From: Escherichia coli
GTDB lineage: Bacteria; Pseudomonadota; Gammaproteobacteria; Enterobacterales; Enterobacteriaceae
DNA length: 64,000 nucleotides
Direction: 5' to 3' (one strand)
Assembly (NCBI RefSeq): GCF_044647545.1
Contig: NZ_CP172818.1
Shown: piece after piece, positions 23,670 through 54,280 of the stretch
Numbering within the stretch: the first letter of the stretch is position 1
Layout of the letters: every line of letters starts with the position of its first letter
The notes under the pieces: model-generated
The model's input: the letters and a program-made list of their open reading frames with translations, nothing else
What the model was told of the DNA's origin: nothing
Databases searched by the model: none
Made by a program: the position numbers and the translations under genes

Positions 23670-23675
23670 CTGGTA

Positions 23676-24950: not shown

Positions 24951-24989
24951 TACGAACGATTCCTCACGTCCATTCGAACGATATCCCTA

Positions 24990-26024: not shown

Positions 26025-26426
26025 TTGGCGACCAGTTCGCAAGCAATTGCCGCGACGGGCTGGTTAGACACCGGCGACCTCGGTTATCTGCTGGACGGTT
26101 ATCTGTATGTCACCGGACGCATTAAAGATCTGATTATTATTCGTGGCCGTAATATCTGGCCGCAGGATATTGAATATATAGCGGAACAGGAACCGGAAAT
26201 TCATTCTGGCGATGCGATTGCTTTTGTTACCGCCCAGGAAAAAATCATTTTGCAGATCCAGTGTCGGATCAGCGACGAAGAACGTCGCGGGCAGGTTTCC
26301 CACCCCGCACGCGGCCAAAATGAAAATGGAGTTACCCCTGCTAGCGATTTTCGATCTCTCCACACCACACCCTTTTACGGCCCCTCCAACCCCACCCGTG
26401 CGCAAGCGGAAACACGTAAACATTAG
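26025..26426 (+). pseudogene. Fragment of a fatty acyl-AMP ligase / adenylate-forming enzyme (C-terminal subdomain only)
   Basis: ORF translation contains WLDTGDLGYLLDGYLYVTGRIKDLIIIRGRNIWPQDIEYIAEQEPEI, matching the conserved TGDLG...TGRxKDLIIxRGxNxYPQDIE motif of FAAL/acyl-CoA synthetases; the N-terminal ~450 aa of such enzymes is absent. Confidence 0.55.
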
Positions 26427-26558
26427 CGTAGGCTTCTAGTCTCAATGTTCATGAACCCCAATCATTAATCAAACTGACACTGTGACGGTGGCGAGCGGTA
26501 CTAGCTTTAAAGGTATTAATATTATAACCTGCTCGCCCGCGGCTTTCACGTTCGCGCA

Positions 26559-26840
26559 TTGACGCGTACTGCCCGCGCTCACGTCAATGATAATCTCCCC
26601 TCGGTGGGGGGTTGGCTGCAGGATACTCATTCACTTAGCGAGCTGGTTGCCGGAGCCAGCGTAGTGGTCCATTGCGCCGGGCAAGTGCGCGGGACAAGCA
26701 CCACGCTAATCGACCAGTCTAACCTTACCAAGCACCAAAGAGAGCTGCTAGCGCCAACGGTGTCCGTTTTTTTCTACCCTTTTCTCTTTCTATCTTCAGT
26801 TCCCCCGTACCCAAACGCGCTATACTGCTCTGAGCAATGA
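26559..26840 (+). pseudogene. Possible NAD(P)-binding (SDR/epimerase-like) fragment
   Basis: Short ORF with ...LVAGASVVVHCAGQVRG... resembling a Rossmann-fold motif; weak. Confidence 0.2.
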
Positions 26841-27764
26841 CAATCAGTAATGGCGGACCAAATGACGCTGGTGGTGGACCACCTTACAGTCGGCGTTTTT
26901 CCCGCGAAAAAAGTGTTTAAACCCCGCGTTGACGGGATGAAACCCCTCTTTCTGTGACTACTTGGCGCCCTACAGACACAGCTTTCTTTGCCGGATATCA
27001 CCCTTTTTTTTCAGCAGGTGACCAATTAAGCCGGAGAAGCGCCTCAATGATACAGACGCAAAAATACAAGCAAACCTATGAATTATGCGATGGCGTCGCC
27101 GGCGGCTATGACTGGCAACGCGTACAGCAACTTGCCGCCGACGCCCGTTGCGGTTCCCTGGATGGTGTTCATTGCCGGTACTCACCGGCCTTGCGGATAT
27201 CAGTACCGCGTTGAGTCGCCTGGCAGGTAAAGAACCTATGCTCTACCCGTCGAAAATTCGTGAATTAACCCACGCTACCTTTCGTCAACTTCTAACCCTG
27301 TTGTTGAAGATAGTTAGCCTGGTCCCCGGATTACCCAGCAAGACGTATTACTTAACTTGTTTTTTGGTCTGTCACGTTTATATGTTTAATAATGTAATAA
27401 TAATAAATTGTAAAATTTCCTTTTTACAGGATTTTGTCGATATAGTGTAGTTATTCCGAAAGAGGGGGATCTCGTAAGCGCTATAGCCATTGCGTCGATG
27501 AACGTGCTGGGACTCTTTCTAATGGTTGGAGCCCGTAACGATGTTTCCATACCGATTCATATTTTGATGGCTATTAATACCCCTGCGGATGTCATAACCA
27601 CTGTGCTATCATGGGTGGCGCTTCTATCATGGGGCTATAAGGTAGATGTGCGCGACTAGCTAGAGGGCGACTGCGCTTTCGAGCCACCGCATTTTAGCCA
27701 TTACGGGTTACTCACCTGTTTATGATGTTTATTTCCGCCACCGAAGGCCGGATCGGCAATAAAA

Positions 27765-28259
27765 ATGATATCTGGCCGGGACCGATTTTTCGGTTTTGTA
27801 ACCTTTAATCATGATGCCATAGGCGAAGGTCAGGCCGCGTTAGCGGCCCAAGGTACCGGCACCACCGGTTCTCGTATGGCAAACGGCAGTTATGCGCCGC
27901 ACCTGGCGTTAGAGAAAGAGATTGCCGAGTTTTTCAATCGCCCTACCGCTATCGTTTTTTCAACCGGTTATACCGCTAATTTAGGCGTCATCAGCGCACT
28001 TGCCGACCATAACGCCGTGGTGTTACTGGATGCCGACAGCCACGCCAGTATTTATGACGCCTGTTCTCTCGGTGGCGCGGAAATTATTCGTTTCCGCCAT
28101 AACGATGCTAAAGATCTGGAACGGCGGATGGTTCGCCCCGGTGAACGGGCGAAAGAGGCGATTATCATCGTTGAGGGTATCTACAGCATGCTCGGTGACG
28201 TTGCGCCGTTAGCGGAAATTGTTGATAAACATCTGCGTGTGGGTGATTTTTGTTTCTAG
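27765..28259 (+). pseudogene. Fragment of an alpha-oxoamine synthase (BioF/KBL/serine palmitoyltransferase family, PLP-dependent)
   Basis: ORF translation GSRMANGSYAPHLALEKEIAEFFNRPTAIVFSTGYTANLGVISALADHNAVVLLDADSHASIYDACSLGGAEIIRFRHNDAKDLERRM...IIIVEGIYSMLGDVAPLAEIV matches the conserved N-terminal/middle part of AOS enzymes; the region with the catalytic lysine is missing. Confidence 0.6.
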
Positions 28260-28423
28260 TAAGGCCCTTTGGTTTGCGTTGTAGGCGGAAAGGGGGGGCG
28301 AACTGCTTAAACTTGTCGGGGTTGAGGTTATTGTGATTTTTATCGTCGGCACCTTCAGTAAGTCTCTCCCCTAGTTTCGCTTTTTTTGTCTGGTTTCGAA
28401 AGAGGTAAAAGTGGTGCGATGCC

Positions 28424-28468
28424 ACCCCCCCCCATATTTTTTTCCCCCCTCTCTTTCCCCCCCCTCGA
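28424..28468. repeat. Homopolymer-rich low-complexity tract (poly-C, poly-T)
   Basis: GCCACCCCCCCCCATATTTTTTTTCCCCCCTCTCTTTCCCCCCCC; atypical for E. coli. Confidence 0.6.
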
Positions 28469-28918
28469 CGCGCCCGTGCCGTTAACAATGAGCGCCATAC
28501 CACCAGAGCCGGGGCAAAAGCTGATGGAGAAGGATAATCACCTGTATCACTGTGTCGATATACAAGGATTGGATTTTAGGTTACATATAAGTATTAGAGT
28601 GCTGGTAATAATCATAATCAAATAGGACGGGGTACGTATCCGGCTCTAGCGTGTGTTTCTTTCGTTGATCTTTTATGTGCATCTTATCCTCCCCCCTGCC
28701 GGGCATCACGCCGTCGCGCTGTACCCTAAAGCGTGCACACTGCTGAGAGTAGACAAATCGATGCCATCATTCAGGCATTTGCTACTCTGAAGCAGTAATG
28801 TGAGCCCGCCGTGGTGTTGCGCCACGGCGGGTTTAATGTGTTGTGTGATATCACTTACACCAGGCTCAACGCCACCAGCACAAACGCTATCGGTAAACCG
28901 AGCGCGGTAACAGGTGCG

Positions 28919-29997
28919 TCACGCAAATAGCAATCCCAGATTGACCATGATTTGATAGCTGATCCAGGTGAGTAAGCCAACGATGACACCTACAGCGAGA
29001 CGGCTACCCATCCCTCGGGAGCGCGGGGCGCTAAAAATAAACTGGACAGCCAGGAAAAATAACCCCAGGGGTAGGAATGGTTTCCCCAGTTTTTCCAACA
29101 TGGCAAGGCGTTATCCGTGGTGGGTTGCCCCGTTTCCTGGCAATTATGGGAGTTATGGATTAAGTGGAGGGACGGAAAATATATTCCCCCGTCGTTATAA
29201 CTTTTCAATTTTTATACGTGTAAAGCGCTTGCCCGGGGCAATTTTATGATATTTTCCGAGTGTTTTTGCGCCTCTCCCCTATTTTTTCTTTCACTATTAC
29301 ACCATGCAGGATCCACGTTTTGTCGTCTTCAATGGTGGCACTGCGTGCATAAATGTAGGATTCGAGCGAAAGATTACCACGAGATTGTAATATCTCTCCG
29401 CCCACAGGGGCTCCCCGTGCTTGTTGCGCGTTTACCGCGACAAATTTTCTACCCCGCCCCTCCCACAGCGCATTTTGGGGGTAGTGACCTCCTCCCCCCC
29501 ACGGCGCTGGCAGTCGATTTGATTTGCAGCGCCTGTTGCTGCAATGGCGACGCCACCCACTCATCTATCGCGCCTAACGAAACAGTCCACAATATCCCGG
29601 CAACCAGCGCCACCAGTGCAATACGGAAGATAGAAAACCCAGTGCTGCGAATGGCGGTAAGCTCACTGTTTTTCGATAACTGCCCCAGGCCAACAATCCC
29701 TCCCAATAATGCGATAAACGGCGAAAGTTCGACCAGTGTACGCGGTAAGGTCATCAGCACCACCAGCACCGCCTGAGTCCAGCGATAACCGCCCGGGCTG
29801 ACATCATCCAGTTCGTTAATCAGGTTGAAGGTGGTAAAAAGCGGCAGCAATAGCCCTGCGGCGGCGGCAAAACCGAGAAAGAGATGACGGATTAAATAGC
29901 GACTGAAAACGTTCTTCGGGAAAATTTCTGGAGCAAAGAGAAGTCGCGTGCGACCAGCATCAGCAGGCCCATTAGCATGAGTCCGGGTACTAACCAC
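28919..29997 (-). pseudogene. LptF/LptG-family (YjgP/YjgQ) permease homolog, fragmented (N-terminal and C-terminal pieces in different frames)
   Basis: ORF 29449..29997 has FSRYLIRHLFLGF...LPRTLVELSPFIALLGGIVGLGQLSKNSELTAIRSTGFS, an LptG-like N-terminus; ORF 28919..29101 resembles the C-terminal TM segments; frames are broken. Confidence 0.45.
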
Positions 29998-30981
29998 AAA
30001 CCAGGAAGGATGGGGACGCGTTTGCGCCCGTTAGCGCACTCGGCAGACGTCGCCGCCATAAAAAATGGCAATAAACAGCAACGTCAGTGGCAATAACGTT
30101 GTAAAATCGCCCTTGCCGCGGTTTTACCCGACTTAATGAAATGGCCAGCAGCGCCATCAACAATGCGGTCAGGCCACGGCTTTGTCGCCATTGCAGTTCG
30201 GCATGATCGGCAGGAAAGGCGGAGCGCGCCAGCTCCGTGACCGATTTTGCTTTGCGTTTGACGTTAGGGCTTTGATCCAGCGGATTCAGATGTAATTGCA
30301 GATTACGGTAGATCTGTTCGTTGTCGTCACGCCCCTGATGATCGAGAAGATAGGCGGTGCCATTCAACAAAATGATCGTTGGTTAGTTGAGTGGTCAACC
30401 ACACCAATCGAACGGACGCGGGAAAAACGTGTGCGATCGGTAGGAGAAGGATAAATCAGTGCGTGAGTCAGTCGAGCATTTATTTTATTAACCGACCGTC
30501 AAAGGAACATTCGTTCGTTAGTTTTCGTTTGTATTTTATTTCTTCCCCAACAAGTGGAGATCCACCAGCTACGGCTACGGCTGTTCCAGCCGATAAAAAT
30601 TCTGAGAATCCCACGGCCGACGATCCAACGACGGAAGGGGGATAAAAATACTTATTGGTATTATCAGAAAATGAAGGGCGGCTTTCAACCGTCGCCCAGG
30701 GCCCCCCCCGAGAGAGAGCTGGAGGTTATTAGCGGGTAGATATCCGTCCGACCGAGAGTCCAACCGACAGATACATACCGACAGGCAAGTACATCCCCAT
30801 CGCGAGCAGTACGCTGTATGTAACGATCGCTATCCCGAACATCAAGAGCTAAGGTCCCATTTGCCGCTTCGGTCAGATAACGCTGTGCGGAGTAGCTGGC
30901 GAAAATAAAGATCAGAAAACCGACGATAATCAGCACCAGACGGCGCGTACCACGCATGATGTAGTGTTCAACCAGCTTCAT
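29990..30981 (-). pseudogene. Second LptF/LptG-family permease homolog, fragmented (tandem with the downstream copy)
   Basis: ORF 30685..30981 starts MKLVEHYIMRGTRRLVLIIVGFLIFIF (LptF-like N-terminus); ORF 29990..30370 has AELQWRQSRGLTALLMALLAISLSRVKPRQGRF matching the conserved NPRQGR region; frames are broken. Confidence 0.45.
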
Positions 30982-31011
30982 CTCACTAACACCCTCAATC
31001 CTTTGAATTTT

Positions 31012-31573
31012 TTATTCATTGATCAGTTTCTGCGCCAGCGCAATGACATGATCTACCTCTTCCGGCGTCAGGCTGCCGTCCTTTGCCCACTGAATTTGCC
31101 CGTCTTTATTCAGCACCAGAATGGTTGAACTCTGCTCCGGCAACCGCCAGGCAACGCGTCCCAGTCCATTGCCGTCAATAACGAATTGCGCCCACGGATA
31201 GCGGCGTTTATTTTTTTCGATTTTGCCAACGACAAAATAGCCAGTACCAAAGATGGCATCATCGGTGTTCACAATGGTGGTGGGCTGAAAACGATCCTGC
31301 GGAAAGTTTGCCGCTTCAACCGCTTTAATTAACAGTGGCTTTTTTTTTTTCGCGGCCACTCACCCGGCGCTATATTCGGTATAACGCGGTTTTCCCCCGC
31401 GATGTGTGCTGTTCCCCACTTTGTGGTGTGTATTGTCGTCGCTCTATTCAGAAGGATCGCCCCGTTCCTGGGTATTAAACGGGGGTAACCGTTTTGCCAG
31501 TGACAAAATTGTGTGCCTGCACACCCTGGGCTAAGAGCATGATAATCAGCGCAATAATCAAACGAGATGACAT
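31012..31573 (-). pseudogene. YtfJ-family periplasmic protein homolog, frameshifted near a poly-T/poly-A tract
   Basis: C-terminal ORF 31012..31359 has ...TTIVNTDDAIFGTGYFV...YPWAQFVIDGNGL...LVLNKDGQIQWAKDGSLTPEEV matching E. coli YtfJ as I recall it; a signal-peptide-like N-terminus MSSRLIIALIIMLLAQGVQAHNF begins at 31573 in another frame; total span fits a ~185-aa protein. Confidence 0.55.
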
Positions 31574-32675
31574 CATTGCTCCGGTTATAGCGGAAAACGC
31601 GAAATCAGCAGCTCTAAGCGCTGGCGAATATCGCTATCCAGCGCCACCGGTGCATTATACGACCGGGCGGTTTTCCTAATAATCCCCACCATTGTGGCCG
31701 TGTTTTCCCCCATCAGGCCATTAATGGCGGCGAGGAAGCGGGAAATCTTTTATTGCTTTTGTTTATCAAGCGATCTTAAGGTGTCGTAATAAGAAACCTG
31801 CTGACTGATGATTTTTCGCACATCATGAAATTCCCTGCCGGTTAGTCGCGGTTTGGCAATTATCTTTTCATGTGAATTATTTTTTTTCGATAAAAATAAA
31901 AAAACTTCCGATTTTTGAATTGGTAAGGCTTAATGAAAATTCCACCAAGGACAAGACCGAAAAGTTTAATAAAACCCTAAACAATTTCCCTTAAACCAAC
32001 CCATTATTTTCTTTACCTTTAGGAAAACCTCCTGGAAACGGCCCCAAAAAAACGTCCTTTTTCCGGTAAAAAAATCCCCTCTTATTTGATAGTAAATACA
32101 GCCAATGCACAAAATTCAGGCGCTTTCAGCTCTCTTTTATGATTTTATTGTTCATCCGCAGTAAGATTCACCTCATTGCCTTTTTTCTGTTTTCATAGTA
32201 AACGCACCAACTCATTGAGATTAATGAGACTGAGTTAGAAGTGTAGCCAGTACTTGTAATTAATAATATGATTGGGTAAATATAATGTAATGCTAGACGC
32301 CACACTAAACTGACCAGCGCCGCCATCATATTATTCTACTCAACCGAAACAAAGATACCTCCCCTCGCGCGAAAAATGTAATATTTTCTTTATGATTACT
32401 ATTCCGCTCCGTTATCAAGATAAAGAAAGGAATGGCGCTGAAAAAATGCCGTCAAGGTTGGAGAGAACGAGAGCACCAGATATAGACAACCGCCATCGAA
32501 AAAAGCAAATCCCACCCCGACACGCAAACAACTACAAACAGATGAACAGCAATACGAAACTATACCGATGATGTCATGTTTCGCCACGATTGAGGCGATG
32601 GTTTCCCACGAAAAACCCTTTTTCCCCATCATACAATACTCCTGTGGGAAAAGCGCGCTGTTCCCCGCATCGAAA

Positions 32676-40977: not shown

Positions 40978-41093
40978 GGCAACATTGGCACTTATCCTAT
41001 TACCATAAACATTTTAACTAACCCCAAAACCACATTTCATTAACTTTTTCCCTCCCCAATTTTTTTTTTTTCCTAAAAAACACCCCCCTTCCC

Positions 41094-41150
<57 letters not shown>

Positions 41151-41169
41151 ATTTTCGTGCAGCGAGTCC

Positions 41170-41520
41170 CATTTCCCCCGATAAGACCGGTATTTCTTCA
41201 GGCCACAGGAGACTTCAGGCCAAGCTGCTGCATCAGTTTTCGCACCGTTTTGCCACTGAACTTGAGACCTCTTTTCTGAAGTTCACAGTCGATCCGCCGG
41301 TACCCATAACATCCCCGGTGTTCATGGAAGATGGAGGGGATGGGCTGTTTCACATCACAATACTTTTCTTAGCCTTCTGCAGTGACAGCTGATAGTACAG
41401 CGTGCTTCTGGCCAGCCCTGCGAAGCCTTTAACAGGTCAGACTGGCAGTGTCCGCACCTCAGGTTCTGGATGACTTTCGCTTTTTCTCCAGCTCCAGGCG
41501 CTTTTTTCCCAGGAGATCCT
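41170..41520 (-). mobile_element. IS3-family transposase remnant (OrfB N-terminal region, frameshifted and truncated)
   Basis: Minus-strand translations give ...GLARSTLYYQLSLQKAKKSIVM and EHRGCYGYRRIDCELQKRGLKFSGKTVRKLMQQLGL, matching the conserved N-terminal motifs of IS3-family OrfB; no DDE catalytic domain and no inverted repeats follow. Confidence 0.5.
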
Positions 41521-42037
41521 CCTGCATGCCTTCCAGATATGCATTTCCTGCGCAAAAATACCCCCCTCCTTCTTCTCTCTTTCCGCCCTCTGTTTCCCCT
41601 CCTTTTCTCGGGTATCAACAAAACGGTCATTCTTTTCTCCCTCCCGCGCCTAAAAAAGCCCTCACCACCAGTTTGTGTCGCCTTTTTCCTGTTTTCCGCC
41701 GTGTGGTGGCCGGGAATGTTAAAGCCGGCCGGCCGCGGGGGAGAGACAGAGAAAATGCGAGAAAACAAAAAAAAACACGCAAAGTCTCTCTAGAAGAAAA
41801 TAGCCGCCCCCGTTCCTGCAATCCAGGAGCAGAAGAGCGAAAAAAAAAAAAAGAATAAAGGGGGGAGGGGGTGGTATAAAAAAGTTAAAATTGTTGTGGT
41901 GAAAAAAGGAGGCCAGACGGGCCGGTGAAAAAATTCTGTGGGGAAGACTATTTTAAATAAAGGTTTTGTAAAAAACACCACCTGATGTGATATGATATTC
42001 ACTACAAGTGTGGGGTGGAGTTTACGCGCCCTAATCA

Positions 42038-42286
42038 TCACGCGCTGGTAATGTCGTAATCCATTTGGCGCAGCGCGTCTAATGTGGCTTTGGCTTCGTC
42101 TTCATCGATGATGCTCATGGCAAATCCGACGTGCACCAGTACCCACTGGCCCAGCAGATCGGCAGGGTTACCTTCGCAAATCAGGGCGATATTCACGTCG
42201 CGCTTGATACCACATACTTCAACCTGCGCAAGCTGGTGAATATCTTCACCGACAGCCAGCACCTGGCCTGGAACGCCAATACACAT
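42038..42286 (-). CDS. hybG: Hydrogenase maturation chaperone HybG (HypC family), 82 aa
   Basis: ORF track 82 aa beginning MCIGVPGQV (HypC MCxxxP motif). Confidence 0.93.
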
Positions 42287-42298
42287 TGTTAACTCCGG

Positions 42299-42640
42299 TT
42301 ATTCAACTTCAATACTTTTGACGATCAGCGAATCGCCGGTATCGACACGCAACCGCTCGCCATGACAGAGCGGGCATTGCGCATCGTGCTGATGAATCTC
42401 CACCACCTGGCTGCAATCCCAGCACCAGGCCTGGGCGGGTTTATAGACGATATGTAAATCGCACCCTTGCGCCACCGTTCCGTGGCAGACAATTTCAAAA
42501 CTAAAACGGACGGCGCTCTCCTCAACGCAGGAGAGCGCGCCAATTTCCAGCCACACGGCGGTGACGCGCTTAACATCGTGCTGCTCCGCCTGCCGTTGGA
42601 TAATTTCAACGGCGCTCTGGCAAAGCGACAACTCATGCAT
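42299..42640 (-). CDS. hybF: Hydrogenase nickel incorporation protein HybF (HypA family), 113 aa
   Basis: ORF track 42299..42694; start at the Met giving MHELSLCQSAVEII...; CxxC...CxxC zinc site. Confidence 0.93.
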   Translation of the reverse strand: MHELSLCQSAVEIIQRQAEQHDVKRVTAVWLEIGALSCVEESAVRFSFEIVCHGTVAQGCDLHIVYKPAQAWCWDCSQVVEIHQHDAQCPLCHGERLRVDTGDSLIVKSIEVE

Positions 42641-43121
42641 TTTCGCCACTCCTGCGGCCAAACAGCAGGGCGCGACGCCCTGCGTGTGGTACATCCGGAT
42701 TGGTGACTGGCAGCGAAAGGATCATTCGTGCGCAGTCATCCGTCAGGCGTTGGCCCTCTTCAATCGACATGCTGTGCGAAAGCGGCGACATCAGCGAACA
42801 GGAGAGATATTGAGAAACACCGTCCAGTTCGCCAACGGTAAAGGTCATAGTGCCATACGGCAGTTGCAGACCAATTTTTTCACTCACTTTGCGCAGCGGC
42901 CAGAGTTGATCCGGGCCGGGGAAGATAACCGCACTCAGCATCCACGGGGTGATCACACACCCCGTCCACTGACCTTCGAACAGCGTAAAGTCAGAAACAT
43001 ACACCGGCATTGAAGGATGCAGAAAAGAGAGATCGTGCATCGAACGCCGGGCAATTTCTTCAAACGCTGCCTGTACTTGCGCCTTCGGGGAGGTCTGGAA
43101 ACCTGCTATCTCTTCAGTCAT
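42633..43121 (-). CDS. hybE: Hydrogenase-2 operon chaperone HybE, 162 aa
   Basis: ORF track 42633..43196; start at the Met giving MTEEIAGFQTSPKAQVQ...; 8-nt overlaps with neighbouring genes. Confidence 0.9.
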   Translation of the reverse strand: MTEEIAGFQTSPKAQVQAAFEEIARRSMHDLSFLHPSMPVYVSDFTLFEGQWTGCVITPWMLSAVIFPGPDQLWPLRKVSEKIGLQLPYGTMTFTVGELDGVSQYLSCSLMSPLSHSMSIEEGQRLTDDCARMILSLPVTNPDVPHAGRRALLFGRRSGENA

Positions 43122-43608
43122 GAATCGCCTCCCGTGGGATGGCTTCCACGCCTGATTCGCGCAGCGCAGCCAGAACCTGCTCAAGCGCAGGTTCAATCAT
43201 CGCTTCAACCGTCGGCGTTAAGCCGATGTGTGGCTCCAGCGATTCCGGGATCACGCCGACCAGGGTCAGCTTTTTCGGAAACTCACCGGTGAAGCGCAGG
43301 GCCGACAATACGTCGGCCAGGCCAAGCTGATGCGGAGAGATTTTGTTGGTAAACAACGCCGGAACTTCTTCATCCCGCAGGATCATCATCGTTCCCGGCG
43401 CGCTCTTCTTCGACACAATAGCATCCGCAATGATCAGATGATCGCGATTTGCCATGTCGCCAAGCAGCTCCATTCCCGCCGTGCCGCCATCGAGGATCTC
43501 AACATAATCCGGCAGAATGTATCGTTGCTCTAACGCTTCGACAATCCGCACACCGATGGCTTCATCGGTCAGCAAAATATTGCCGACCCCTAAGACTAAA
43601 ATACGCAT
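43114..43608 (-). CDS. hybD: Hydrogenase 2 maturation endopeptidase HybD, 164 aa
   Basis: ORF track 164 aa beginning MRILVLGVGNILLTDEAIG. Confidence 0.93.
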   Translation of the reverse strand: MRILVLGVGNILLTDEAIGVRIVEALEQRYILPDYVEILDGGTAGMELLGDMANRDHLIIADAIVSKKSAPGTMMILRDEEVPALFTNKISPHQLGLADVLSALRFTGEFPKKLTLVGVIPESLEPHIGLTPTVEAMIEPALEQVLAALRESGVEAIPREAIHD

Positions 43609-45311
43609 TACAGAACCTTCACTGAAACCACTTCGTTGCCGTCAGCATCCACTACGTGTACCGCACAGGCCATGCACGGGTCGAAGGAGTGAATGGTACG
43701 CACCACTTCCAGCGGTTTATTCGGATCGGCAACCGGCGTACCCACCAGCGACTGCTCGTAAGGACCGACGTCATCATTGAAGTTACGCGGGCCAGAGTTC
43801 CAGGTTGATGGAACAACTGCCTGGTAGTTACTGATAATACCGTCTTTGATCACCATCCAGTGAGAGAGCATACCGCGCGGCGCTTCAAGGAAACCAACGC
43901 CTTTGAACTCACCTGTAGCCGGAATGTTCGGCTTCACAAAGGTGGTGTGATCGCCTTTGCCGATATTGGTGATCAGTGCACTGTATTGATTTTGCAGGAT
44001 ATCCTGCAATTCGCAGCAGTGAACGGTACGACCAATAATACGGCCCAGCGTGGAGTGCAGCTGCGCCACTTCCAGCGTGTTGCCAGTCAGTTTCTGATAA
44101 ATCGCAACGATTTCATTCAGTTTGTTCTGGGTAGACTCGCGTCCTGCCGCCAGTTTCACCAGCATGTTAGCCAGCGGACCCACTTCTACCGTTTTGCCGT
44201 AGAAAGTCGGTGATTTCACCCAGGAATATTTACCGTCGTCAGACCAACCATCATAAGCCGGAATGGTGGTACCTTCCCACGGTGCCTGCGGCGCTTCGTC
44301 TTTATACCAGGAGTGCTTCGCGCTTTCCTGAATCCCTTTGATCAGGTATTCATCGGAATGAGAAGTGATCGGACGATACGAGGACAGATCCGCATTCTCA
44401 ATGTAGCCGCCCGGGAACAGGAAGCTGCCGTTTTTGCTGTCGGTAGGGAATTCTGGCACGCTCAGGTAGTTCACCGCACCTTTACCGCGCGTCAGCCATT
44501 CCGGGTAGAACGCGGCGATAACCGCGGTATCAACCTTGTAAACCTGCTCAACAAAGTCGCTCAGCTTGTCGATGAAAGACTTGATGTACATCAGGCGCTC
44601 AAGGTTCAACACGCCCAAACCGTCGAGGTTGATCGGGTTCGCGACACCACCTACCGCCAGGTTCTGAATGTGCGGCGTTTTACCGCCCAGCAGCGCCACG
44701 ACGCGGTTAGCGTCACGCTGGCACTCCAGCGCCTGCAGGTAGTGCGCTACCGCAATCAGGTTCACTTCCGGCGGCAGTTTCATCGCCGGGTGACCCCAGT
44801 AGCCATTGGCGAAAATACCCAACTGACCGCTGGCAACCAGATCTTTGATCTTGTTCTGAACTTTGGTGAACTCTTCCGGGCTGTTCAGGTGCCAGGTCGA
44901 AACACCTTTCAGCATTTCGGAGGCTTTGGTTGGGTCAGCTTGCAGTGCAGAAGTGATGTCCACCCAGTCCAGCGCCGAGAGCTGATAGAAATGAACGATA
45001 TGGTCATGCGTGGTGTGCGCAGCCAGAATGATGTTACGGATGTATTGCGCGTTAACCGGAACGTCGATATTCAGCGCACTCTCTGCCGCACGAACGGAAG
45101 ACAGCGCGTGAGTGGTAGTACATACGCCACAGATACGTTGCACAATCATCCATGCATCGCGCGGATCGCGGTTTTTCACGATCTCTTCCATGCCGCGCCA
45201 CATGGTACCGGAAGCCCATGCTTTCGAAACGACACCATTTTCGATTTCGCAATCGATGCGTAAATGCCCCTCAATACGGGTTACCGGATCAATAGTAATT
45301 CTCTGGCTCAT
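43608..45311 (-). CDS. hybC: [NiFe] hydrogenase 2 large subunit, 567 aa
   Basis: ORF track 567 aa; N-terminal RICGVC and C-terminal DPCMACAVH nickel-binding motifs. Confidence 0.96.
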   Translation of the reverse strand: MSQRITIDPVTRIEGHLRIDCEIENGVVSKAWASGTMWRGMEEIVKNRDPRDAWMIVQRICGVCTTTHALSSVRAAESALNIDVPVNAQYIRNIILAAHTTHDHIVHFYQLSALDWVDITSALQADPTKASEMLKGVSTWHLNSPEEFTKVQNKIKDLVASGQLGIFANGYWGHPAMKLPPEVNLIAVAHYLQALECQRDANRVVALLGGKTPHIQNLAVGGVANPINLDGLGVLNLERLMYIKSFIDKLSDFVEQVYKVDTAVIAAFYPEWLTRGKGAVNYLSVPEFPTDSKNGSFLFPGGYIENADLSSYRPITSHSDEYLIKGIQESAKHSWYKDEAPQAPWEGTTIPAYDGWSDDGKYSWVKSPTFYGKTVEVGPLANMLVKLAAGRESTQNKLNEIVAIYQKLTGNTLEVAQLHSTLGRIIGRTVHCCELQDILQNQYSALITNIGKGDHTTFVKPNIPATGEFKGVGFLEAPRGMLSHWMVIKDGIISNYQAVVPSTWNSGPRNFNDDVGPYEQSLVGTPVADPNKPLEVVRTIHSFDPCMACAVHVVDADGNEVVSVKVL

Positions 45312-46486
45312 GCTTTGCTCGCCTCATGACGATTATGATCGTTTTGTTTTAAAGGAGGAAGTATCGGCAGTAGACGAATGAGTACGATGTAAGCGCAAAT
45401 CTCAATAGCCACAAAACCAATAGAAATCAACAGTTCTTCCCAGGTCGGGAAGTAGGCGTAACCGCCGCCCGGGTTGAATGCCACCAGCGAATAGGTCAGA
45501 CGCCAGGTTGCACAACCTAACAGTGCGCTCAGTGCTGACAGGAACAGCATGCGGGAATCATTACGCAGCTTCGCCACACGCAGAACGACCAGCGGGAAGA
45601 GCATCAGCAGGACTTCAATCCAGAACATCACGGAGTAGAAGTCACCGGCAAATGCTAACGACAGCTTGTCGCGATAGATAAGCTCGCCAAAGCGCAGCAC
45701 GATGAAAATCGCCAGCAACACACTGATGGTGTTGGTCAGCTTAACGAACAGACTCTTTTCATCCGGACCGTTGCCACGCAGACCCGCCTGCACCAGCGAA
45801 CCTTCAAAGATGACAATTGAGAAGCCCATGATGAACGCCGTCAGCAGCGAGAACAGCGGCAACATTTCATAGCTTTGCCACAGCGGATGCACCTTGTAGC
45901 CCGCCGAGATCATCAGCGACCCCATTGAAGACTGGTGCATGGTCGGCAGCAGCGCGCCAAGTGCAATGATGAAGAACATCACCTTGTTCAGACGCTGTAG
46001 CGACACCTTCCAGCCCAGACGTTCAAACAGTGCCGGAGCAAACTCCAGTGCCATCACGCCGATATAGATGGTCATACAGACCGCCGTCTCGAACAGTACC
46101 GAGTTCACGTTGAAGTGACCCGGAATGTAGAAGTACGGCAGGTTCCAGTAGCGACCCACGTCGATGGTGATCGACAAGCCACCCAAGGAGTAACCGAACA
46201 GACTTGCCAACAGCGCCGGACGCACCAGCGGATGGTATTGCCCACGGTTAAAGACGTATACTGCCCACGCCAGCGCCCAGCCGCCACAGGCAAAGCCGGT
46301 ACCGATCAACAGGTCAAACGCGATCCACACGCCCCACGGGAAGCCGCCGTTCAGGTCAGAGACAGAGCCAAGACCGAACACCAGACGCTTCACAATCAGG
46401 AGCATACAGATGACGATTAACGGTCCAAAAATCATGACCGGTTTACTGATGATTTTGCCGCCCAGCGGTTGTGGATCATGACTCAT
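45308..46486 (-). CDS. hybB: Hydrogenase 2 integral membrane subunit HybB, 392 aa
   Basis: ORF track 392 aa polytopic membrane protein. Confidence 0.95.
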
Positions 46487-47462
46487 GATCGTCTCCTCCG
46501 TCGTGATGGTCGTTTTTGGTGTTGCGACGAACCAGCACGGTTAAGCCCGCCAGCACAGCCAGTGGTAGCATCATGCCTTTATACAGGGTGTGTTGAATAT
46601 TTTCGGAACGCGCACCGGTAGAAAGATCGTCCAGTTTCGGCAGGTCGAGATTTTCATAAGGCACACCCGTCAGTACCAGAACCTGAGTACCGCCGCCCTC
46701 TTTCTCGCCGTACAGATGCGGATAATATTTCGGCACCGTATGCAGGTAAGTGTCGCCAGATTTCAGCGTCTGACGCGGATAGTGGTATTCGCTGCCAGGC
46801 TTCAGCGCCAGACGTTTTTTCGCCTCCGCCATCAGCTCTTCACGCGTACCGAAAATCACCGCGCCCGCCGGGCACACTTCTACGCAGCCAGGCAGACCGC
46901 CTTTATCGAGACGTTCCACACCTTTCTGGTTGCACAGCTCGCACTTATGCAGCGCACCAAACGGGTTGTTGTAGTCGTACTTCGGCACATTGTATGGGCA
47001 GGCGACCATGCAGTAACGGCAGCCGGTGCACACGTCTTTGTCGTAATGGACAATGCCGGTTTTCGGATCTTTTTTCAGTGCAGAAACCGGGCACACGGAG
47101 ACACAGTTCGGATCGACGCAGTGCATACACTGTTTCTTAATGTACGCGTAGCCGTTCTCCTCCTGGTCTTTGTTGACGCCCGTGCCGCTGGTCCACACCT
47201 GAATGATGTTATTGGTATACGGCGACAGTTTGTCGTTGTTCGACCAGGTCTGTTCCCCTTGCGGGTTACGTTCAGGGAAGTTGATATCCTGACACTTGGT
47301 GACGCACGCCTGGCAGCCTACGCACAAGGTCGAGTCGTACAACATCCCCAGCGATCCCGGAATTGGCGGGCGGTTTTCAGCAGCCGCATGACTGACAGAC
47401 GGCAGCGCGCCCGTCAGCAATGCCCCGCAGGAGGCTGCTTTAATAAAATTACGTCTGTTCAC
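46476..47462 (-). CDS. hybA: Hydrogenase 2 ferredoxin-type 4Fe-4S subunit HybA, 328 aa
   Basis: Tat-type N-terminus [16 protein letters not shown] and multiple Cys clusters. Confidence 0.95.
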
Positions 47463-47464
47463 GG

Positions 47465-48583
47465 TTATTCTCCCCGTGAGTCAGCGTTATCTTTCTTTTG
47501 CTGACGACCCAGTTCACGCACCGCCATCACGCTGACACCGGCAACCAGCCCAACCACACCGCCGAGCAAACCAATAGCGCCCGCAGAGACGTTGCCGCCT
47601 TCTTTAGCGTTAACATCCGGTTTCTGTGAACGCGGAGTCTGGTTTTCGACGTTGGCAAGCTGATGGATGCCTTTATGGAAGCCGATACCTTCTTCGTTAC
47701 AGCCATAGCACGGGTGACCAATCGCCACCGGCCACACACCGCCAACATCGCAGAATTGCAGCGTTGAGCAGTTGCCGTAAGTTTCTGGCCCTTTACAGCC
47801 GAGGTGGTACAGGCACCAGCCTTCGCGGTGGCCTTCATCACCGAACTCTTTGGCAAAACGACCAGCATCGAAGTGCGGGCGACGTTCGCAGTGTTCGTGA
47901 ATCAGACGGCCATAGGCGAAGGTCGGACGGTTTTTGTCATCCAGTTTCGGCGGCTTGCCGTAAGTGATGATGTGCGCAACGGTCGCGAGGAAGTTGTGCG
48001 GGTTCGGCGGGCAGCCAGGAATGTTGATTACAGTTTTGCCCGGCAGAACTTCTTGCAGGCTGACTGCGCCAGTTGGGTTAACTCCAGCTGCGGCAACACC
48101 GCCCCACGCAGAGCAGGAACCGATAGCGATAATGGCTGCTGCGCCTTCCGCCGCTTTGCGGATGTGATCCACAATCGGCTCACCGGCAACCATGCAATAA
48201 ATACCGTTATCTTTTAATGGGATGGAACCATCCACCACTAACACATACTGCCCTTTGTACTTCTCGAGAGCGTTATGTTTGTTCTCTTCGACCTGATGAC
48301 CGAAGGCGGCGGAAAGCACTTCGTGATACTCCAGAGAGATAGTCTCCAGCACGAGGTTTTCTACCGTTGGATGCGTTGCACGAAGCAGAGATTCCGTACA
48401 ACCGGTGCACTCCTGCGCGCCAATCCAGATAACTGGCGGACGCTGCGGGTTAGTAACCGATTCGGCCATCTCTGCAGCGGCTTTGCTACTTAACCCCATG
48501 GTGGCGGCTAATGCTGCACAAAGCTTCATGAAATCACGACGGTTAATGCCGTGAGAATGGATGAGGGTGTTATCTCCAGTCAT
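47465..48583 (-). CDS. hybO: [NiFe] hydrogenase 2 small subunit HybO, 372 aa
   Basis: Tat signal with RRDFMK motif; first gene of the hyb operon. Confidence 0.95.
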
Positions 48584-48771
48584 TTATAGTTATTCCGTTG
48601 CGAAGACCTGGCATATATTTTGCCTCAATCGCAAAATCAATAATGCGATCGATGCGCCATTTACCACACATTTATTATGGTTATCGATATCATGATACTG
48701 CGGCGGGGCACTAAAACGAAGGGAAGAAGCATTAGTGTAATTAATTAAAGCAAGATAATACGTATGTTTGA
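48584..48771 (-). promoter_or_regulatory. hyb operon promoter region (upstream of hybO)
   Basis: AT-rich intergenic region upstream of the first hyb gene; individual sites not resolved. Confidence 0.35.
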
Positions 48772-49059
48772 TCAATTTTCTAGGCGATAACCGGCCATAA
48801 AAAAGCGCAACGTAGAACAGGAATTATTCTCACGAAAGAAATCCATTACCATCTCTTTATCCAGTCCATAACGGCGCGTCAGAATACCCGCTTCCCAGGC
48901 GCTAAGCTGGCGATCTCCGGTCTTTTCGTACATCCGGTGTGAGTAGCCTAATACAAAACCGCGTTTATAATCGGCACAGAATTTTGTCACATTAACCGCA
49001 CTGTCGGCATGCGTTGCTTTTAATCCCGCCATTAAGCCTTTACCAAAATGGTTATTCAT
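48772..49059 (-). CDS. yghW: Uncharacterized protein YghW (DUF2623), 95 aa
   Basis: ORF track 95 aa in the expected position next to hybO. Confidence 0.85.
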
Positions 49060-49177
49060 CGTTCACCTCATTCGCTATATATTTTCATATATAGCGATAT
49101 TTTAGGCAAAGAACGACTTTTGCGCACGCTATTTTTTCATGCTTGTTTAAGACGTAATCCCGTAAGAGATAAACCTA

Positions 49178-50065
49178 TCAGGAGAGATATTTATCGAACC
49201 ATTTCAGCGTCCTTTGCCAGGCAAGATCGGCGGCAGATTTGTCATAACGGGGCGTGGAATCATTATGGAATCCGTGATTAACCCCCGGATAGATATACGC
49301 CTCATAGACCTTATTATTGGCTTTCAACGCCGCCTCGTAAGCAGGCCAGCCCTCGTTGATTCGGGTGTCCAGTTCCGCGTAGTGCAACAGTAAAGGCGCT
49401 TCAATCTTCGCCACATCGGCAGTGGGTGCCTGACGACCATAAAACGGCACCGCGCAGGCCAGTTCCGGGTAAGCGACCGCTGCCGCGTTCGATACGCCAC
49501 CGCCATAGCAAAATCCGGTAATACCCACTTTGCCTGTCGCTTGCGGATAGCGTTGCATAAACTCAATTGCGGCAAAGAAATCATTCATCAGTTTGGTTGG
49601 ATCAACCTGCTGTTGCAGCTCACGACCTTTATCGTCATTACCCAGATAACCTCCAACGGAACTTAAGCCGTCAGGTGCCAGGGCGATATACCCCGCCTTC
49701 GCCACTCGCCGTGCCACATCTTCGATATACGGATTCAGTCCACGATTCTCATGCACCACCACCACGGCTGGCGTTTTGCCGCTCATCTTTGCGGGCTTCA
49801 CCAGATAACCCCGTACCTCGCCGTGACCATTTGGCGAAGGATACGTGATGTACTCAGCAACAATCTCCGGGTCGGTAAACTCTACCTGAGTCGCCAGCGC
49901 ATAATTTGGCTTGAGCAAATCAAACAACGCTAATGCCGTCATCCCGCCCACCGCATACTTCGCCGCAAGGTTGAGGAACTCACGTTTCGAGATTTTCCCG
50001 TGAGCGTAATAGTCGTAGTAATCCAGCAACTCTTGTGGGAAATCTTTGGCGGTTAAACGCGGCAT
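49178..50065 (-). CDS. yghX: Dienelactone hydrolase-family protein with Tat-like N-terminus (yghX locus), apparently intact
   Basis: ORF track 49178..50104; start taken at the Met giving MPRLTAKDFPQELLDYY..., preceded by a GAGGAG ribosome-binding site. Confidence 0.8.
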   Translation of the reverse strand: MPRLTAKDFPQELLDYYDYYAHGKISKREFLNLAAKYAVGGMTALALFDLLKPNYALATQVEFTDPEIVAEYITYPSPNGHGEVRGYLVKPAKMSGKTPAVVVVHENRGLNPYIEDVARRVAKAGYIALAPDGLSSVGGYLGNDDKGRELQQQVDPTKLMNDFFAAIEFMQRYPQATGKVGITGFCYGGGVSNAAAVAYPELACAVPFYGRQAPTADVAKIEAPLLLHYAELDTRINEGWPAYEAALKANNKVYEAYIYPGVNHGFHNDSTPRYDKSAADLAWQRTLKWFDKYLS

Positions 50066-50221
50066 CGTTGCACTCCTCAACTGGTGTTTTTTTAAGCAAA
50101 GCATAAGCGCGTGTTTTTGCCCAGTTTTTCGTCACTCTGTGAGCCAGACTACGGGATACGCGCAGGCGAATCGCTAAACTAGAAACATTGTTTCGAAATT
50201 GAACGGTGGAAAGGAGAGGTC

Positions 50222-51244
50222 ATGGTCTGGTTAGCGAATCCCGAACGTTACGGGCAGATGCAGTACCGCTATTGCGGAAAAAGTGGTTTGCGCCTGCCCG
50301 CGTTATCGCTCGGTTTATGGCACAATTTCGGTCACGTTAACGCGCTGGAATCACAGCGTGCGATCCTGCGTAAAGCGTTTGATTTGGGCATTACGCACTT
50401 TGATTTAGCCAATAATTACGGGCCGCCTCCAGGAAGCGCAGAAGAGAACTTTGGTCGCCTGCTGCGCGAGGATTTTGCCGCTTATCGCGATGAACTGATT
50501 ATCTCTACCAAGGCTGGCTACGATATGTGGCCCGGCCCTTACGGCTCTGGCGGTTCACGTAAATACCTGCTCGCCAGCCTCGACCAAAGCCTGAAGCGTA
50601 TGGGGCTTGAGTATGTCGATATCTTTTACTCTCATCGCGTCGATGAAAATACGCCGATGGAAGAAACCGCCTCTGCGCTGGCTCATGCGGTACAAAGCGG
50701 TAAGGCGCTGTATGTCGGGATCTCCTCTTACTCGCCAGAGCGGACGCAAAAAATGGTCGAGTTACTGCGCGAGTGGAAAATTCCGCTGTTAATTCATCAA
50801 CCTTCGTACAATTTACTGAACCGCTGGGTGGATAAAAGCGGCCTGCTGAATACCCTGCAACATAACGGCGTGGGCTGCATTGCCTTTACTCCTCTGGCTC
50901 AGGGATTGCTGACCGGAAAATATCTCAACGGCATTCCGCAAGATTCACGGATGCATCGTGAAGGGAATAAAGTTCGTGGTCTGACGCCGAAAATGCTCAC
51001 CGAAGCCAACCTCAACAGCCTGCGCTTATTGAATGAAATGGCACAGCAGCGTGGACAATCAATGGCGCAAATGGCGTTAAGCTGGTTGCTGAAAGATGAG
51101 CGAGTGACGTCGGTATTGATTGGTGCCAGCCGCGCGGAGCAACTTGAGGAGAACGTGCAGGCGCTGAATAATCTGACATTTAGCACCGAGGAGCTGGCGC
51201 AGATTGATCAGCATATCGCCGATGGCGAGCTGAATCTGTGGTAG
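50222..51244 (+). CDS. gpr: L-glyceraldehyde 3-phosphate reductase (aldo-keto reductase), 340 aa as encoded here
   Basis: ORF track 340 aa MVWLANPERYGQMQYRYCGKSGL...; terminates at TAG 51242-51244 with in-frame ASSDK-TGA immediately downstream. Confidence 0.9.
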   Translation: MVWLANPERYGQMQYRYCGKSGLRLPALSLGLWHNFGHVNALESQRAILRKAFDLGITHFDLANNYGPPPGSAEENFGRLLREDFAAYRDELIISTKAGYDMWPGPYGSGGSRKYLLASLDQSLKRMGLEYVDIFYSHRVDENTPMEETASALAHAVQSGKALYVGISSYSPERTQKMVELLREWKIPLLIHQPSYNLLNRWVDKSGLLNTLQHNGVGCIAFTPLAQGLLTGKYLNGIPQDSRMHREGNKVRGLTPKMLTEANLNSLRLLNEMAQQRGQSMAQMALSWLLKDERVTSVLIGASRAEQLEENVQALNNLTFSTEELAQIDQHIADGELNLW

Positions 51245-51301
51245 GCGTCTTCCGATAAATGACCTGTTAATAACGGGCGCGAGAACCGCGCCCGAATCAG
51301 A

Positions 51302-51865
<564 letters not shown>

Positions 51866-51986
51866 TCAACATATACGTTAAACCTTTGTCGCATGATTCT
51901 GAGGTTTAGGGATTTTCCTGGTTCCCTTATCAACGCATCGAGAGCGTCTACCCTTAAAGGACGTTGAACCTGAAGGGAGAAAAACG

Positions 51987-52871
51987 ATGTCTCATTTAAA
52001 AGACCCGACCACGCAGTATTACACTGGTGAATATCCCAAACAGAAACAACCGACGCCAGGCATCCAGGCGAAGATGACACCGGTGCCAGATTGCGGCGAG
52101 AAAACCTATGTTGGTAGCGGTCGCCTGAAGGATCGTAAAGCACTGGTGACAGGGGGCGATTCCGGAATCGGTCGCGCTGCCGCCATCGCTTACGCGCGTG
52201 AAGGGGCTGACGTGGCGATCAGTTATCTTCCCGTGGAAGAAGAAGACGCTCAGGATGTGAAAAAGATCATTGAAGAATGCGGACGCAAAGCCGTTCTGCT
52301 GCCAGGCGATTTAAGCGATGAGAAATTTGCCCGTTCGCTGGTTCACGAAGCGCATAAGGCCTTAGGCGGGCTGGATATTATGGCGCTGGTCGCCGGGAAA
52401 CAGGTTGCCATTCCTGATATTGCTGACCTCACCAGCGAACAGTTTCAAAAGACCTTTGCCATTAACGTTTTCGCGCTGTTCTGGCTAACCCAGGAAGCGA
52501 TCCCCCTGCTACCGAAAGGTGCAAGTATTATCACCACTTCGTCAATCCAGGCATACCAGCCAAGCCCGCATTTACTGGACTATGCGGCTACGAAGGCGGC
52601 GATTCTGAACTACAGCCGAGGCCTGGCAAAACAGGTCGCGGAGAAAGGTATTCGGGTGAATATTGTTGCGCCTGGCCCGATCTGGACAGCACTGCAAATT
52701 TCCGGCGGGCAAACGCAGGATAAGATCCCGCAGTTTGGTCAGCAAACGCCGATGAAACGTGCGGGACAACCGGCGGAACTGGCCCCTGTATATGTTTATC
52801 TGGCAAGTCAGGAATCGAGCTACGTCACCGCAGAAGTGCACGGCGTGTGCGGCGGCGAGCATTTAGGTTAA
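51987..52871 (+). CDS. yghA: NADP-dependent short-chain dehydrogenase/reductase YghA, 294 aa
   Basis: ORF track 294 aa with [10 protein letters not shown] Rossmann motif. Confidence 0.93.
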
Positions 52872-52877
52872 AAAAAT

Positions 52878-52909
52878 GCCCGGTTGTGAAAAGCAACCGG
52901 GCTTTTATT
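52878..52909. terminator. Bidirectional rho-independent terminator between convergent yghA and exbD
   Basis: GCCCGGTTG-tgaaaag-CAACCGGGC stem-loop flanked by A-run and T-run. Confidence 0.65.
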
Positions 52910-53330
52910 TCGCTTTGGCAGTTTCTTCGCCAACCAGACCTATCTTCAGGTAACCCGCCTGATGCAGCGTATCCATTACCTTCATCAACGTCTCGTAATC
53001 GACGGTTTTGTCCGCTCGGAAGAAGATGGTGGTGTCTTTCTTGCCTTCGGTTAACGCATTCAACGCCGTAATCATTGTTTCATCGGTGACCGGATCGTTA
53101 CCGATAAACATCGAGTTGTCTGCCTTCACCGACAGATAAACCGGTTTTTCCGGGCGCGGCTGCGGCGTGCTGGTAGAAGCAGGCAAGTTCACCTTCACAT
53201 CTACCGTCGCTAACGGTGCCGCCACCATAAAGATAATCAGCAGAACCAACATCACGTCGATAAACGGCGTCACGTTGATATCATGCATTTCGCCGTTATC
53301 GTCGAGGTTTTCGTTAAGATGCATTGCCAT
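52905..53330 (-). CDS. exbD: TonB-system biopolymer transport protein ExbD, 141 aa
   Basis: ORF track 141 aa. Confidence 0.95.
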   Translation of the reverse strand: MAMHLNENLDDNGEMHDINVTPFIDVMLVLLIIFMVAAPLATVDVKVNLPASTSTPQPRPEKPVYLSVKADNSMFIGNDPVTDETMITALNALTEGKKDTTIFFRADKTVDYETLMKVMDTLHQAGYLKIGLVGEETAKAK

Positions 53331-53336
53331 CGGACA

Positions 53337-54071
53337 TTATCCTGCGCGTAATTTTTGTGCGACACGAACCGGATGCGCAGCGGCGCTGGCTTCCAGATCC
53401 AGGTCACGGCTTTGCAGCAACAATACCTGCGCTGCAACATCACCCAGCATCGCTTTAAAGCCGCCAATCTGGCGTGCAAATACGTTATAGATAACGACCG
53501 CCGGAATCGCTGCCACGAGGCCGATTGCCGTTGCTAACAGAGCTTCTGCGATACCCGGCGCAACGACTGCCAGGTTAGTGGTCTGCGTTTGCGCGATACC
53601 AATAAAGCTGTTCATGATGCCCCAGACCGTACCAAACAGACCAACGAACGGTGAAATCGCGCCGATGGTTGCCAGATAGCCGTTACCTCGGCCCATTTGA
53701 CGACCTACTGCGGCGACCCGACGCTCCAGACGGAAGCTGGTACGTTCTTTAATACCTTCGTTATCGTCGCTGCCTTCTGACAGTTCCAGCTCATTCTGCG
53801 CTTCATTGAGCAAATGCAGGCTTAAGCTTTTGCTACCAAAATCAGCGGCGATATCGTTGGCCTGGTTTAAGGAACGCGCTTCAGCCAGCAGTTGCTGCTC
53901 GCGCTTAAGGCGACGCTTCTGATTGAAGAACTCTACGCTCTTACTGAAGAAGATTGCCCAGGTGACTACGGAGGCCAAAATAAGCCCAATCATCACGCAC
54001 TTAACGACAATATCGGCGTGCTGATACATACCCCAGACGGAAAGGTCCGTCTGCATTAAATTATTACCCAC
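53337..54071 (-). CDS. exbB: TonB-system biopolymer transport protein ExbB, 244 aa
   Basis: ORF track 244 aa. Confidence 0.95.
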   Translation of the reverse strand: MGNNLMQTDLSVWGMYQHADIVVKCVMIGLILASVVTWAIFFSKSVEFFNQKRRLKREQQLLAEARSLNQANDIAADFGSKSLSLHLLNEAQNELELSEGSDDNEGIKERTSFRLERRVAAVGRQMGRGNGYLATIGAISPFVGLFGTVWGIMNSFIGIAQTQTTNLAVVAPGIAEALLATAIGLVAAIPAVVIYNVFARQIGGFKAMLGDVAAQVLLLQSRDLDLEASAAAHPVRVAQKLRAG

Positions 54072-54094
54072 TGTGTATCTCCAGGACGCAAGTC

Positions 54095-54150
54095 ACAAAA
54101 TCTGCGCATAATAATATCAAAACGACGTCGAATTGATAGTCGTTCTCATT
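54095..54150 (-). promoter_or_regulatory. exbBD promoter region with putative Fur-box-like sequence
   Basis: AT-rich sequence with GATAAT-like hexamers upstream of exbB; exbBD is known to be iron/Fur regulated; not scored against a matrix. Confidence 0.3.
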
Positions 54151-54280
54151 ACTATTTGCATACTGCCGTACCTTTGCTTTCTTTTCCTTGCGTTTACGCA
54201 GTAAAAAAGTCACCAGCACGCCATTTGCGAAAATTTTCTGCTTTATGCCAATTCTTCAGGATGCGCCCGCGAATATTCAT

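Follow-up and report, generated by a model that had tools for sequence, protein, structure and literature searches.

An inherited amber codon removes the conserved last six residues of Gpr (YghZ) in ST648-type Escherichia coli

The DNA analysed here is a stretch of 64,000 nucleotides of Escherichia coli (contig NZ_CP172818.1, referred to below as the window), within which gpr (yghZ), the gene of L-glyceraldehyde 3-phosphate reductase, is found in the gene order yghX-gpr-yqhA-yghA. The same order is present in K-12, O157:H7 Sakai, N32, ST95-32 and the ST648 genomes. The features of gpr and of the spacer downstream of it are the following:

50222..51244, + strand: gpr (yghZ) coding sequence in its present form, 340 codons and then TAG, encoding an L-glyceraldehyde 3-phosphate reductase of AKR14A1 type (ORF list, NF007388, Pfam, RefSeq)
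50849, + strand: lineage-marker SNP within gpr, AAT (Asn210) here versus GAT (Asp) in K-12, Sakai, N32 and ST95-32 (codon tables)
51242..51244, + strand: premature amber codon TAG, which is codon 341, with the derived base T at 51242; the ancestral codon is CAG (Gln) (alignments, codon tables)
51245..51262, + strand: untranslated remnant of the ancestral C-terminus, the codons of A S S D K and the ancestral TGA (51260-51262), read from the sequence, with the same bases as in K-12 and Sakai
51274..51294, no strand assigned: 8-bp GC-rich hairpin (GGGCGCGA/..CGCGCCC) in the gpr-yqhA spacer (RNA fold)

The gene yqhA is convergent with gpr, lying on the minus strand from 51302, and the spacer between them is 39 nt long. 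The hairpin at 51274-51294 is located about 30 nt 3' of the TAG and is unaltered by the early stop. It was not called as a terminator because no T-run follows its stem, and the consensus scan called no intrinsic terminator between gpr and yqhA. Neither the terminator scan nor the RNA fold gave any sign within this spacer that the earlier stop alters transcription, and since only a convergent gene lies 3' of gpr, the early stop has no polar effect on the neighbouring genes. On the other side, yghX (49178-50065, - strand, divergent from gpr) encodes a YghX-family hydrolase and is an intact 888-nt gene in the window, in Sakai and in the ST648 genomes; its K-12 counterpart is annotated as a pseudogene with a frameshift. 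The genes yqhD, dkgA and yghA, encoding other aldehyde reductases, are present in the same window.

The 340-aa Gpr encoded here ends with ...IADGELNLW, Trp340 being its last residue, and the in-frame codons 3' of the TAG (51245-51262) are GCG TCT TCC GAT AAA TGA, which encode ASSDK followed by a stop. This is exactly the reading, at the same positions, that the initial annotation had given. The DNA alignment and codon tables show that codon 341 is CAG in K-12 (AML003_par), O157:H7 Sakai, N32 and ST95-32, none of whose gpr genes ends at this TAG. Within this codon, T in place of C at 51242 is the sole difference of the window from K-12 and Sakai in the alignment, and the 18 bases 3' of it match both references exactly. 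Since the five codons and the TGA are the same as in the references, what follows in frame is the former C-terminus of the protein and no chance continuation of the open reading frame. The reference gpr is 1041 nt long and encodes 346 aa according to the annotation of K-12 (AML003_par) and O157:H7 Sakai, and the PDB chains 3N6Q and 4AST have the same 346-aa sequence ending with NLWQASSDK, while 4AUB is a tagged version. The K-12 length of 346 aa, six above the 340 found here, had been given in the initial annotation, and from it a point mutation of a Gln codon CAG to TAG had been proposed; both the length and the mutation are borne out by these comparisons. A C>T transition at 51242 has thus changed Gln341 from CAG to amber TAG and removed six residues (QASSDK), shortening the protein from 346 to 340 aa. 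A Dcm hotspot was considered as the mutational cause and rejected, as the context TGGCAGGCG does not match CCWGG.

The gene had also been described as otherwise identical to the reference, which does not hold for K-12 but does hold for another strain. Compared with K-12, gpr of the window has 14 differences beyond 51242, four of which are amino-acid changes (codon tables; given as window residue, position and K-12 residue: N210D, H214N, E293D and E323K), because the window carries an ST648-type allele and not that of K-12. The 1041-nt gpr of E. coli 2014C-3075 (WP_053294542.1), by contrast, is the same as the window allele except for one base, the equivalent of 51242, which is C and gives a full 346-aa protein. 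This gene either preserves the haplotype's ancestral state or has reverted to it, the latter being less parsimonious. The gpr of AR_0077 has the 50849 marker, yet differs from the window at 9 positions. A synonymous TTA at Leu181 (50764) is a further lineage-specific difference in gpr alongside Asn210.

Carriers of the stop allele were counted among 5,426 complete E. coli genomes using a 55-nt query placed so that all 28-mer seeds cover 51242, which yields a lower bound. The results of this search showed that T at 51242 is present in at least 81 of the 5,426 genomes, every match being 100% identical over 55 nt. This amounts to about 1.5% of complete E. coli genomes, and about 98% have a sense codon there. 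In a collection of 15 billion proteins, the exact 340-aa Gpr was found on at least 1,000 contigs. The carriers were obtained from humans, dogs, cats, poultry, wild birds, river water and wastewater, and they include IMT16316, which was typed as ST648 (PMC6003029), and a strain named "ST648"; the assignment to ST648 comes from the strain name or the literature and covers a few of the 81 carriers. PMC12736214 assigns ST648 to phylogroup F. A 55-nt query centred on 50849 detected the Asn210 marker in 90 genomes, of which 82 matched the query at 100% identity; this is slightly more than the 81 TAG carriers, and the two groups are essentially the same set. Given that 2014C-3075 is one base apart, with C at 51242, and that the 50849 marker is linked to the stop, the nonsense change arose once on this haplotype. 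The amber stop is a genuine inherited nonsense polymorphism of the ST648 (phylogroup F) gpr haplotype, shared by clonal descent and not by recurrence, and T at 51242 offers a simple marker for this haplotype. The coding sequence of WP_022646122.1 matches 50222-51244 exactly in FDAARGOS_497, Ecol_881, WP4-S18-ESBL-09 and strain 1428, and RefSeq/PGAP labels it intact. Since the window allele equals this entry, it is already catalogued, an ordinary natural variant known from the database. In the library searched, no paper linked ST648 with gpr/yghZ or dealt with this allele.

The window as a whole looks composite. It is base-for-base the same as ST648-type genomes such as WP4-S18-ESBL-09 over 6787-24778, 32648 to about 40250, 42031-61005 (save for a 5-bp indel at 52902) and 62019-64000. 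FDAARGOS_497 diverges over 5404-24778 (96-97.7% identity), and genomes of the WP4-S18-ESBL-09 type are the closest to the window. The indel at 52902, a deletion of ATCAT relative to FDAARGOS_497 and WP4-S18-ESBL-09, lies in the spacer of the convergent genes yghA and exbD and is the sole difference within 42031-61005. Two Rfam matches at gathering level, both on the + strand and unrelated to the gpr stop, are C0719 (15991-16212, 297 bits) and ES173 (58608-58671, 99 bits). Three segments that are accessory in ST648 appear in the window solely as degraded copies:

24779-32647: degraded segment with flanks of 100% identity, itself matching the closest genome at only about 84% with some 235 gap openings
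41014-42031: degraded segment between yghU and hybG, where ST648 genomes have an intact IS3-family transposase (WP_101687376.1)
61005-62019: degraded segment between yqhH and ygiQ, where ST648 genomes have two hypothetical genes (WP_022646126.1 and WP_022646127.1)

The genes of the 24779-32647 region are yghO and those of a fatty acyl-AMP ligase, an epimerase, an ACP, a serine palmitoyltransferase and lptG/lptF-like proteins. Within it, 24779-25902 gave no match at all, and this part is C/A-rich with a GC skew of -0.46 and an internal imperfect repeat. The segment at 41014-42031 has a 31-nt poly-C run, a 12-nt poly-T run and many substitutions and indels, with no intact open reading frame. That at 61005-62019 is A-rich and of low complexity (GC 0.29, poly-A runs up to 31 nt), a gap-ridden copy that decays into homopolymers and does not look biological. 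The left end of the window (5068-7748) is K-12-like: pheV (tRNA-Phe) directly adjoins yghD with no island, and a gspL'/'gspC fusion at 6787-6791 represents the junction of the ~8-kb deletion of K-12, 100% identical over 101 nt. SNPs of ST648 type come as close as about 75 nt to the left side of this gsp junction and about 155 nt to its right side, and no complete E. coli genome exceeds 96.8% identity over 6300-7300. Ordinary sequencing error cannot explain the K-12-type junction together with the degraded segments, and the window may be a composite or a reconstructed or generated sequence. Since gpr has zero differences from real ST648 genomes, these oddities leave the gpr finding unaffected.

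The protein encoded by gpr of the window scores 791.1 bits against NCBIfam NF007388 (cutoff 448; 806.9 bits for the K-12 protein), covering profile positions 1-340 of 346. It possesses the Pfam domain PF00248 Aldo_ket_red at residues 28-332 (profile positions 2-290 of 291, E = 4.8e-86), the stop falling 8 residues past the end of this domain, and 98% of the length is kept. The residues Asp61, Tyr66, Lys97 and His138, proposed as the putative catalytic tetrad of YghZ in the structure paper (PMC3290569), are all four present in the 340-aa translation. The truncated Gpr keeps the whole aldo-keto reductase barrel, the tetrad and the cofactor-binding core. By score, domain, catalytic residues and synteny, the gpr of the window is an orthologue of K-12 Gpr/YghZ that lacks only the conserved C-terminus: the orthologue ending ...ADGELNLWQASSDK is absent from the window Gpr, which ends at W340, and this makes it a less typical member but no less an orthologue. 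Relative to its orthologues, the gene has the premature stop of a pseudogene (TAG at codon 341 of 346); no further decay was seen, as the domain and tetrad are kept, there are zero other differences from the 2014C-3075 allele and PGAP sets no pseudogene flag. The gene fits neither a decaying pseudogene nor a programmed read-through gene.

Both L-glyceraldehyde 3-phosphate (L-GAP; kcat/KM 4.2 x 10^5 M^-1 s^-1) and methylglyoxal are reduced by YghZ, whose proposed role is their detoxification (PMC2948282, PMC3290569), and overexpressed YghZ was reported to rescue a tpiA mutant (PMC2948282). This NADPH-dependent reduction of L-GAP and methylglyoxal is known from the 346-aa enzyme of K-12 (PMC2948282, PMC3290569).

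Orthologues of gpr were scanned in one genome per species (GTDB) using degenerate DNA for ADGELNLW, and 68 loci with a gpr-like upstream context were translated. The sampled taxa include Citrobacter, Enterobacter, Kosakonia, Lelliottia, Rahnella, Hafnia, Ewingella, Siccibacter, Cedecea, Shimwellia, Yokenella, Phytobacter, E. albertii, E. whittamii and others. In this sample, which may favour conserved C-termini because ADGELNLW is fixed in the search pattern and from which Salmonella and Klebsiella were not recovered, QASSDK is intact in 62 of the 68 orthologous loci of other species. The remaining 6 have single conservative changes (QASSEK twice, and QASSNK, QASSDR, HASSDK and QTSSDK once each). 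No shortened tail was found in the 68 loci, and the equivalent of codon 341 is Gln in all of them except one with His. The six tail codons occur in 39 distinct 18-nt versions among these loci, and pairwise identity averages 97% within the tail versus 68% in the 20 residues preceding the motif. Given that the tail is 97% identical while its synonymous sites vary, purifying selection acts on the protein tail. The hits of a word-indexed protein search were all from E. coli, at 98% identity or above, and are silent on the tail in other genera. Three loci of the genome scan (L022, L025 and L059) are on very short contigs of 429-1710 nt that encode an enterobacterial-type Gpr C-terminus and are filed as a Bacillota MAG, Terrisporobacter mayombei and Aromatoleum evansii; L025 and L059 end with TGA, like E. 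coli. The likely source is enterobacterial DNA contaminating those assemblies.

The AlphaFold2 monomer model of K-12 Gpr has a mean pLDDT of 93.5, with residues 342-346 below 50. Many representatives of at most 60% identity end near residue 331, as do several solved relatives, and in remote relatives that keep (N/D)(L/I)W the tail after the Trp varies in sequence and length, with one representative stopping at the aligned Trp. Low pLDDT, variable distant tails and shorter solved homologues would make the tail look dispensable, a reading that was downgraded by the orthologue scan, with its 97% conservation and synonymous turnover. Prediction confidence and cross-species conservation oppose each other here, and a short tail that looks disordered need not be unconstrained. 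When the model was compared by Foldseek with chains B, C, G, E and H of 4AUB, which contains NADP+citrate, the alignments covered 344-345 columns, versus at most 338 columns with apo 3N6Q and 4AST. This suggests that the tail is ordered only in the ligand-bound (NADP+citrate) crystal form, as read from alignment lengths and not from coordinates.

We favour an explanation in which a clonal ST648 nonsense SNP leaves the core of Gpr intact and most likely yields an active enzyme with a mild impairment or alteration, and we regard it as a whole with fairly high confidence. With C>T at 51242 on the ST648 gpr haplotype, translation ends at Trp340, and the product is a 340-residue Gpr that retains the barrel, tetrad and cofactor core and has lost QASSDK. 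The lost tail would be part of the C-terminal loop, loop C, on which substrate binding by aldo-keto reductases (AKRs) depends and whose truncation lowered the activity of AKR1C (PMC9427786). The truncated Gpr is probably folded and active. A mild impairment or change in how it handles its substrates is suggested by three properties of the tail, namely its near invariance, its place in the C-terminal loop and its apparent ordering only in the ligand-bound crystal. The chances for and against a measurable kinetic change seem to us evenly balanced. Such a change would be tolerable because gpr is non-essential and its activity overlaps with the aldehyde reductases of yqhD, dkgA and yghA. A bolder version, which we regard as rather unlikely, would make QASSDK a ligand-gated lid of AKR14-type reductases, ordered only once cofactor and an anionic analogue of the substrate have bound and possibly in contact with the L-GAP phosphate or an adjacent subunit. 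ST648 would then be a natural lid-less mutant with altered L-GAP/methylglyoxal detoxification, and this changed detoxification might contribute to the metabolic phenotype of pandemic ST648.

It is possible, though in our view somewhat doubtful, that the truncation is silent, the tail being floppy, the 340-aa enzyme behaving like the wild type and the allele having hitch-hiked with the successful ST648 clone. This would agree with the pLDDT below 50 for residues 342-346, with last residues that are apparently unmodelled in the apo crystal chains, with distant relatives whose tail is variable or missing (one ends exactly at the aligned Trp), with a Pfam domain that already ends at 332, and with the persistence of the allele, whose 81 or more complete-genome carriers come from human, dog, cat, bird and water sources. 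However, a QASSDK that is 97% conserved over 67-68 species with free synonymous variation indicates purifying selection, 0 of those species have a shortened tail, and persistence in a young clone is a poor guide to fitness. The same very strong conservation among orthologues, together with the importance of the C-terminal loop for substrate binding in AKRs and the fact that gpr, with its role in L-GAP/methylglyoxal detoxification, is non-essential, could be read more drastically: loss of the tail might abolish activity or stability, leaving gpr effectively dead in ST648 as a first step of pseudogenisation. Such a null allele is quite unlikely, since only 6 of 346 residues are lost with barrel, tetrad and cofactor core intact, no other disabling change is present (zero further differences from the full-length 2014C-3075 allele), and family members of about 331 aa that lack this region are folded, crystallised proteins.

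The truncation itself could be questioned in two ways. UAG is decoded only by RF1, and low-level, context-dependent read-through occurs in E. coli, basal read-through being typically well under a few percent. If near-cognate decoding or a suppressor tRNA allowed the amber codon to be read through, full-length Gpr would still be made, and the truncation would be partly cosmetic or would give two isoforms. The downstream frame of ASSDK and TGA is perfectly intact, as this would need, but an intact frame is expected anyway for a recent mutation, and the stop is not conserved, with a sense codon in 68 of 68 loci of other species and in about 98% of E. coli genomes. As the stop is confined to one clone (81 of 5,426 genomes), nothing points to programmed read-through, and we consider read-through very unlikely; the tRNA content of the window consists of tRNA-Phe only. 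An error of sequencing, assembly or sequence generation might be suspected since other parts of the window are degraded or composite (poly-C, poly-A, blocks of 84% identity and a K-12-type junction on ST648 alleles) and the whole is therefore not fully trustworthy. Yet 42031-61005 is identical to independent complete ST648 genomes save for the indel at 52902, 81 complete genomes assembled independently have T at 51242, and at least 1,000 contigs encode the protein. A sequencing error at 51242 is effectively refuted by these carriers, and an artefact of any of the three kinds is exceedingly unlikely.

The ST648 and 2014C-3075 alleles, which are one base apart, provide a ready-made isogenic test of the function of the conserved Gpr hexapeptide. 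They form a convenient natural experiment because the deleted hexapeptide is strongly constrained; no paper in the library searched deals with the role of this C-terminal hexapeptide of Gpr/AKR14A1. The interpretation of the genome is little affected, as the allele is catalogued, the detoxification enzyme is non-essential and annotation pipelines accept the gene as intact.

Among known systems, the loop C truncations of AKR1C (PMC9427786) resemble the present case in that C-terminal residues of the substrate loop are gone while the barrel is intact. They differ in that those truncations were engineered in another AKR family with steroid substrates, whereas that of Gpr is natural and comprises only six residues. 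K-12 Gpr/YghZ (AKR14A1; UniRef name GPR_ECOLI; PDB 3N6Q, 4AST and 4AUB) is the product of the same gene at the same locus, yghX-gpr-yqhA-yghA, with 98.8% identity to the window protein over 340 residues (4 replacements), and the catalytic tetrad, the NCBIfam family above its cutoff and the fold family are common to both. In contrast to K-12 Gpr, the window Gpr ends at Trp340 without QASSDK and differs from it by N210, H214, E293 and E323 (D, N, D and K in K-12). The closest counterpart is RefSeq WP_022646122.1, the 340-aa L-glyceraldehyde 3-phosphate reductase of ST648-type genomes, whose sequence is identical to the window Gpr with no difference.
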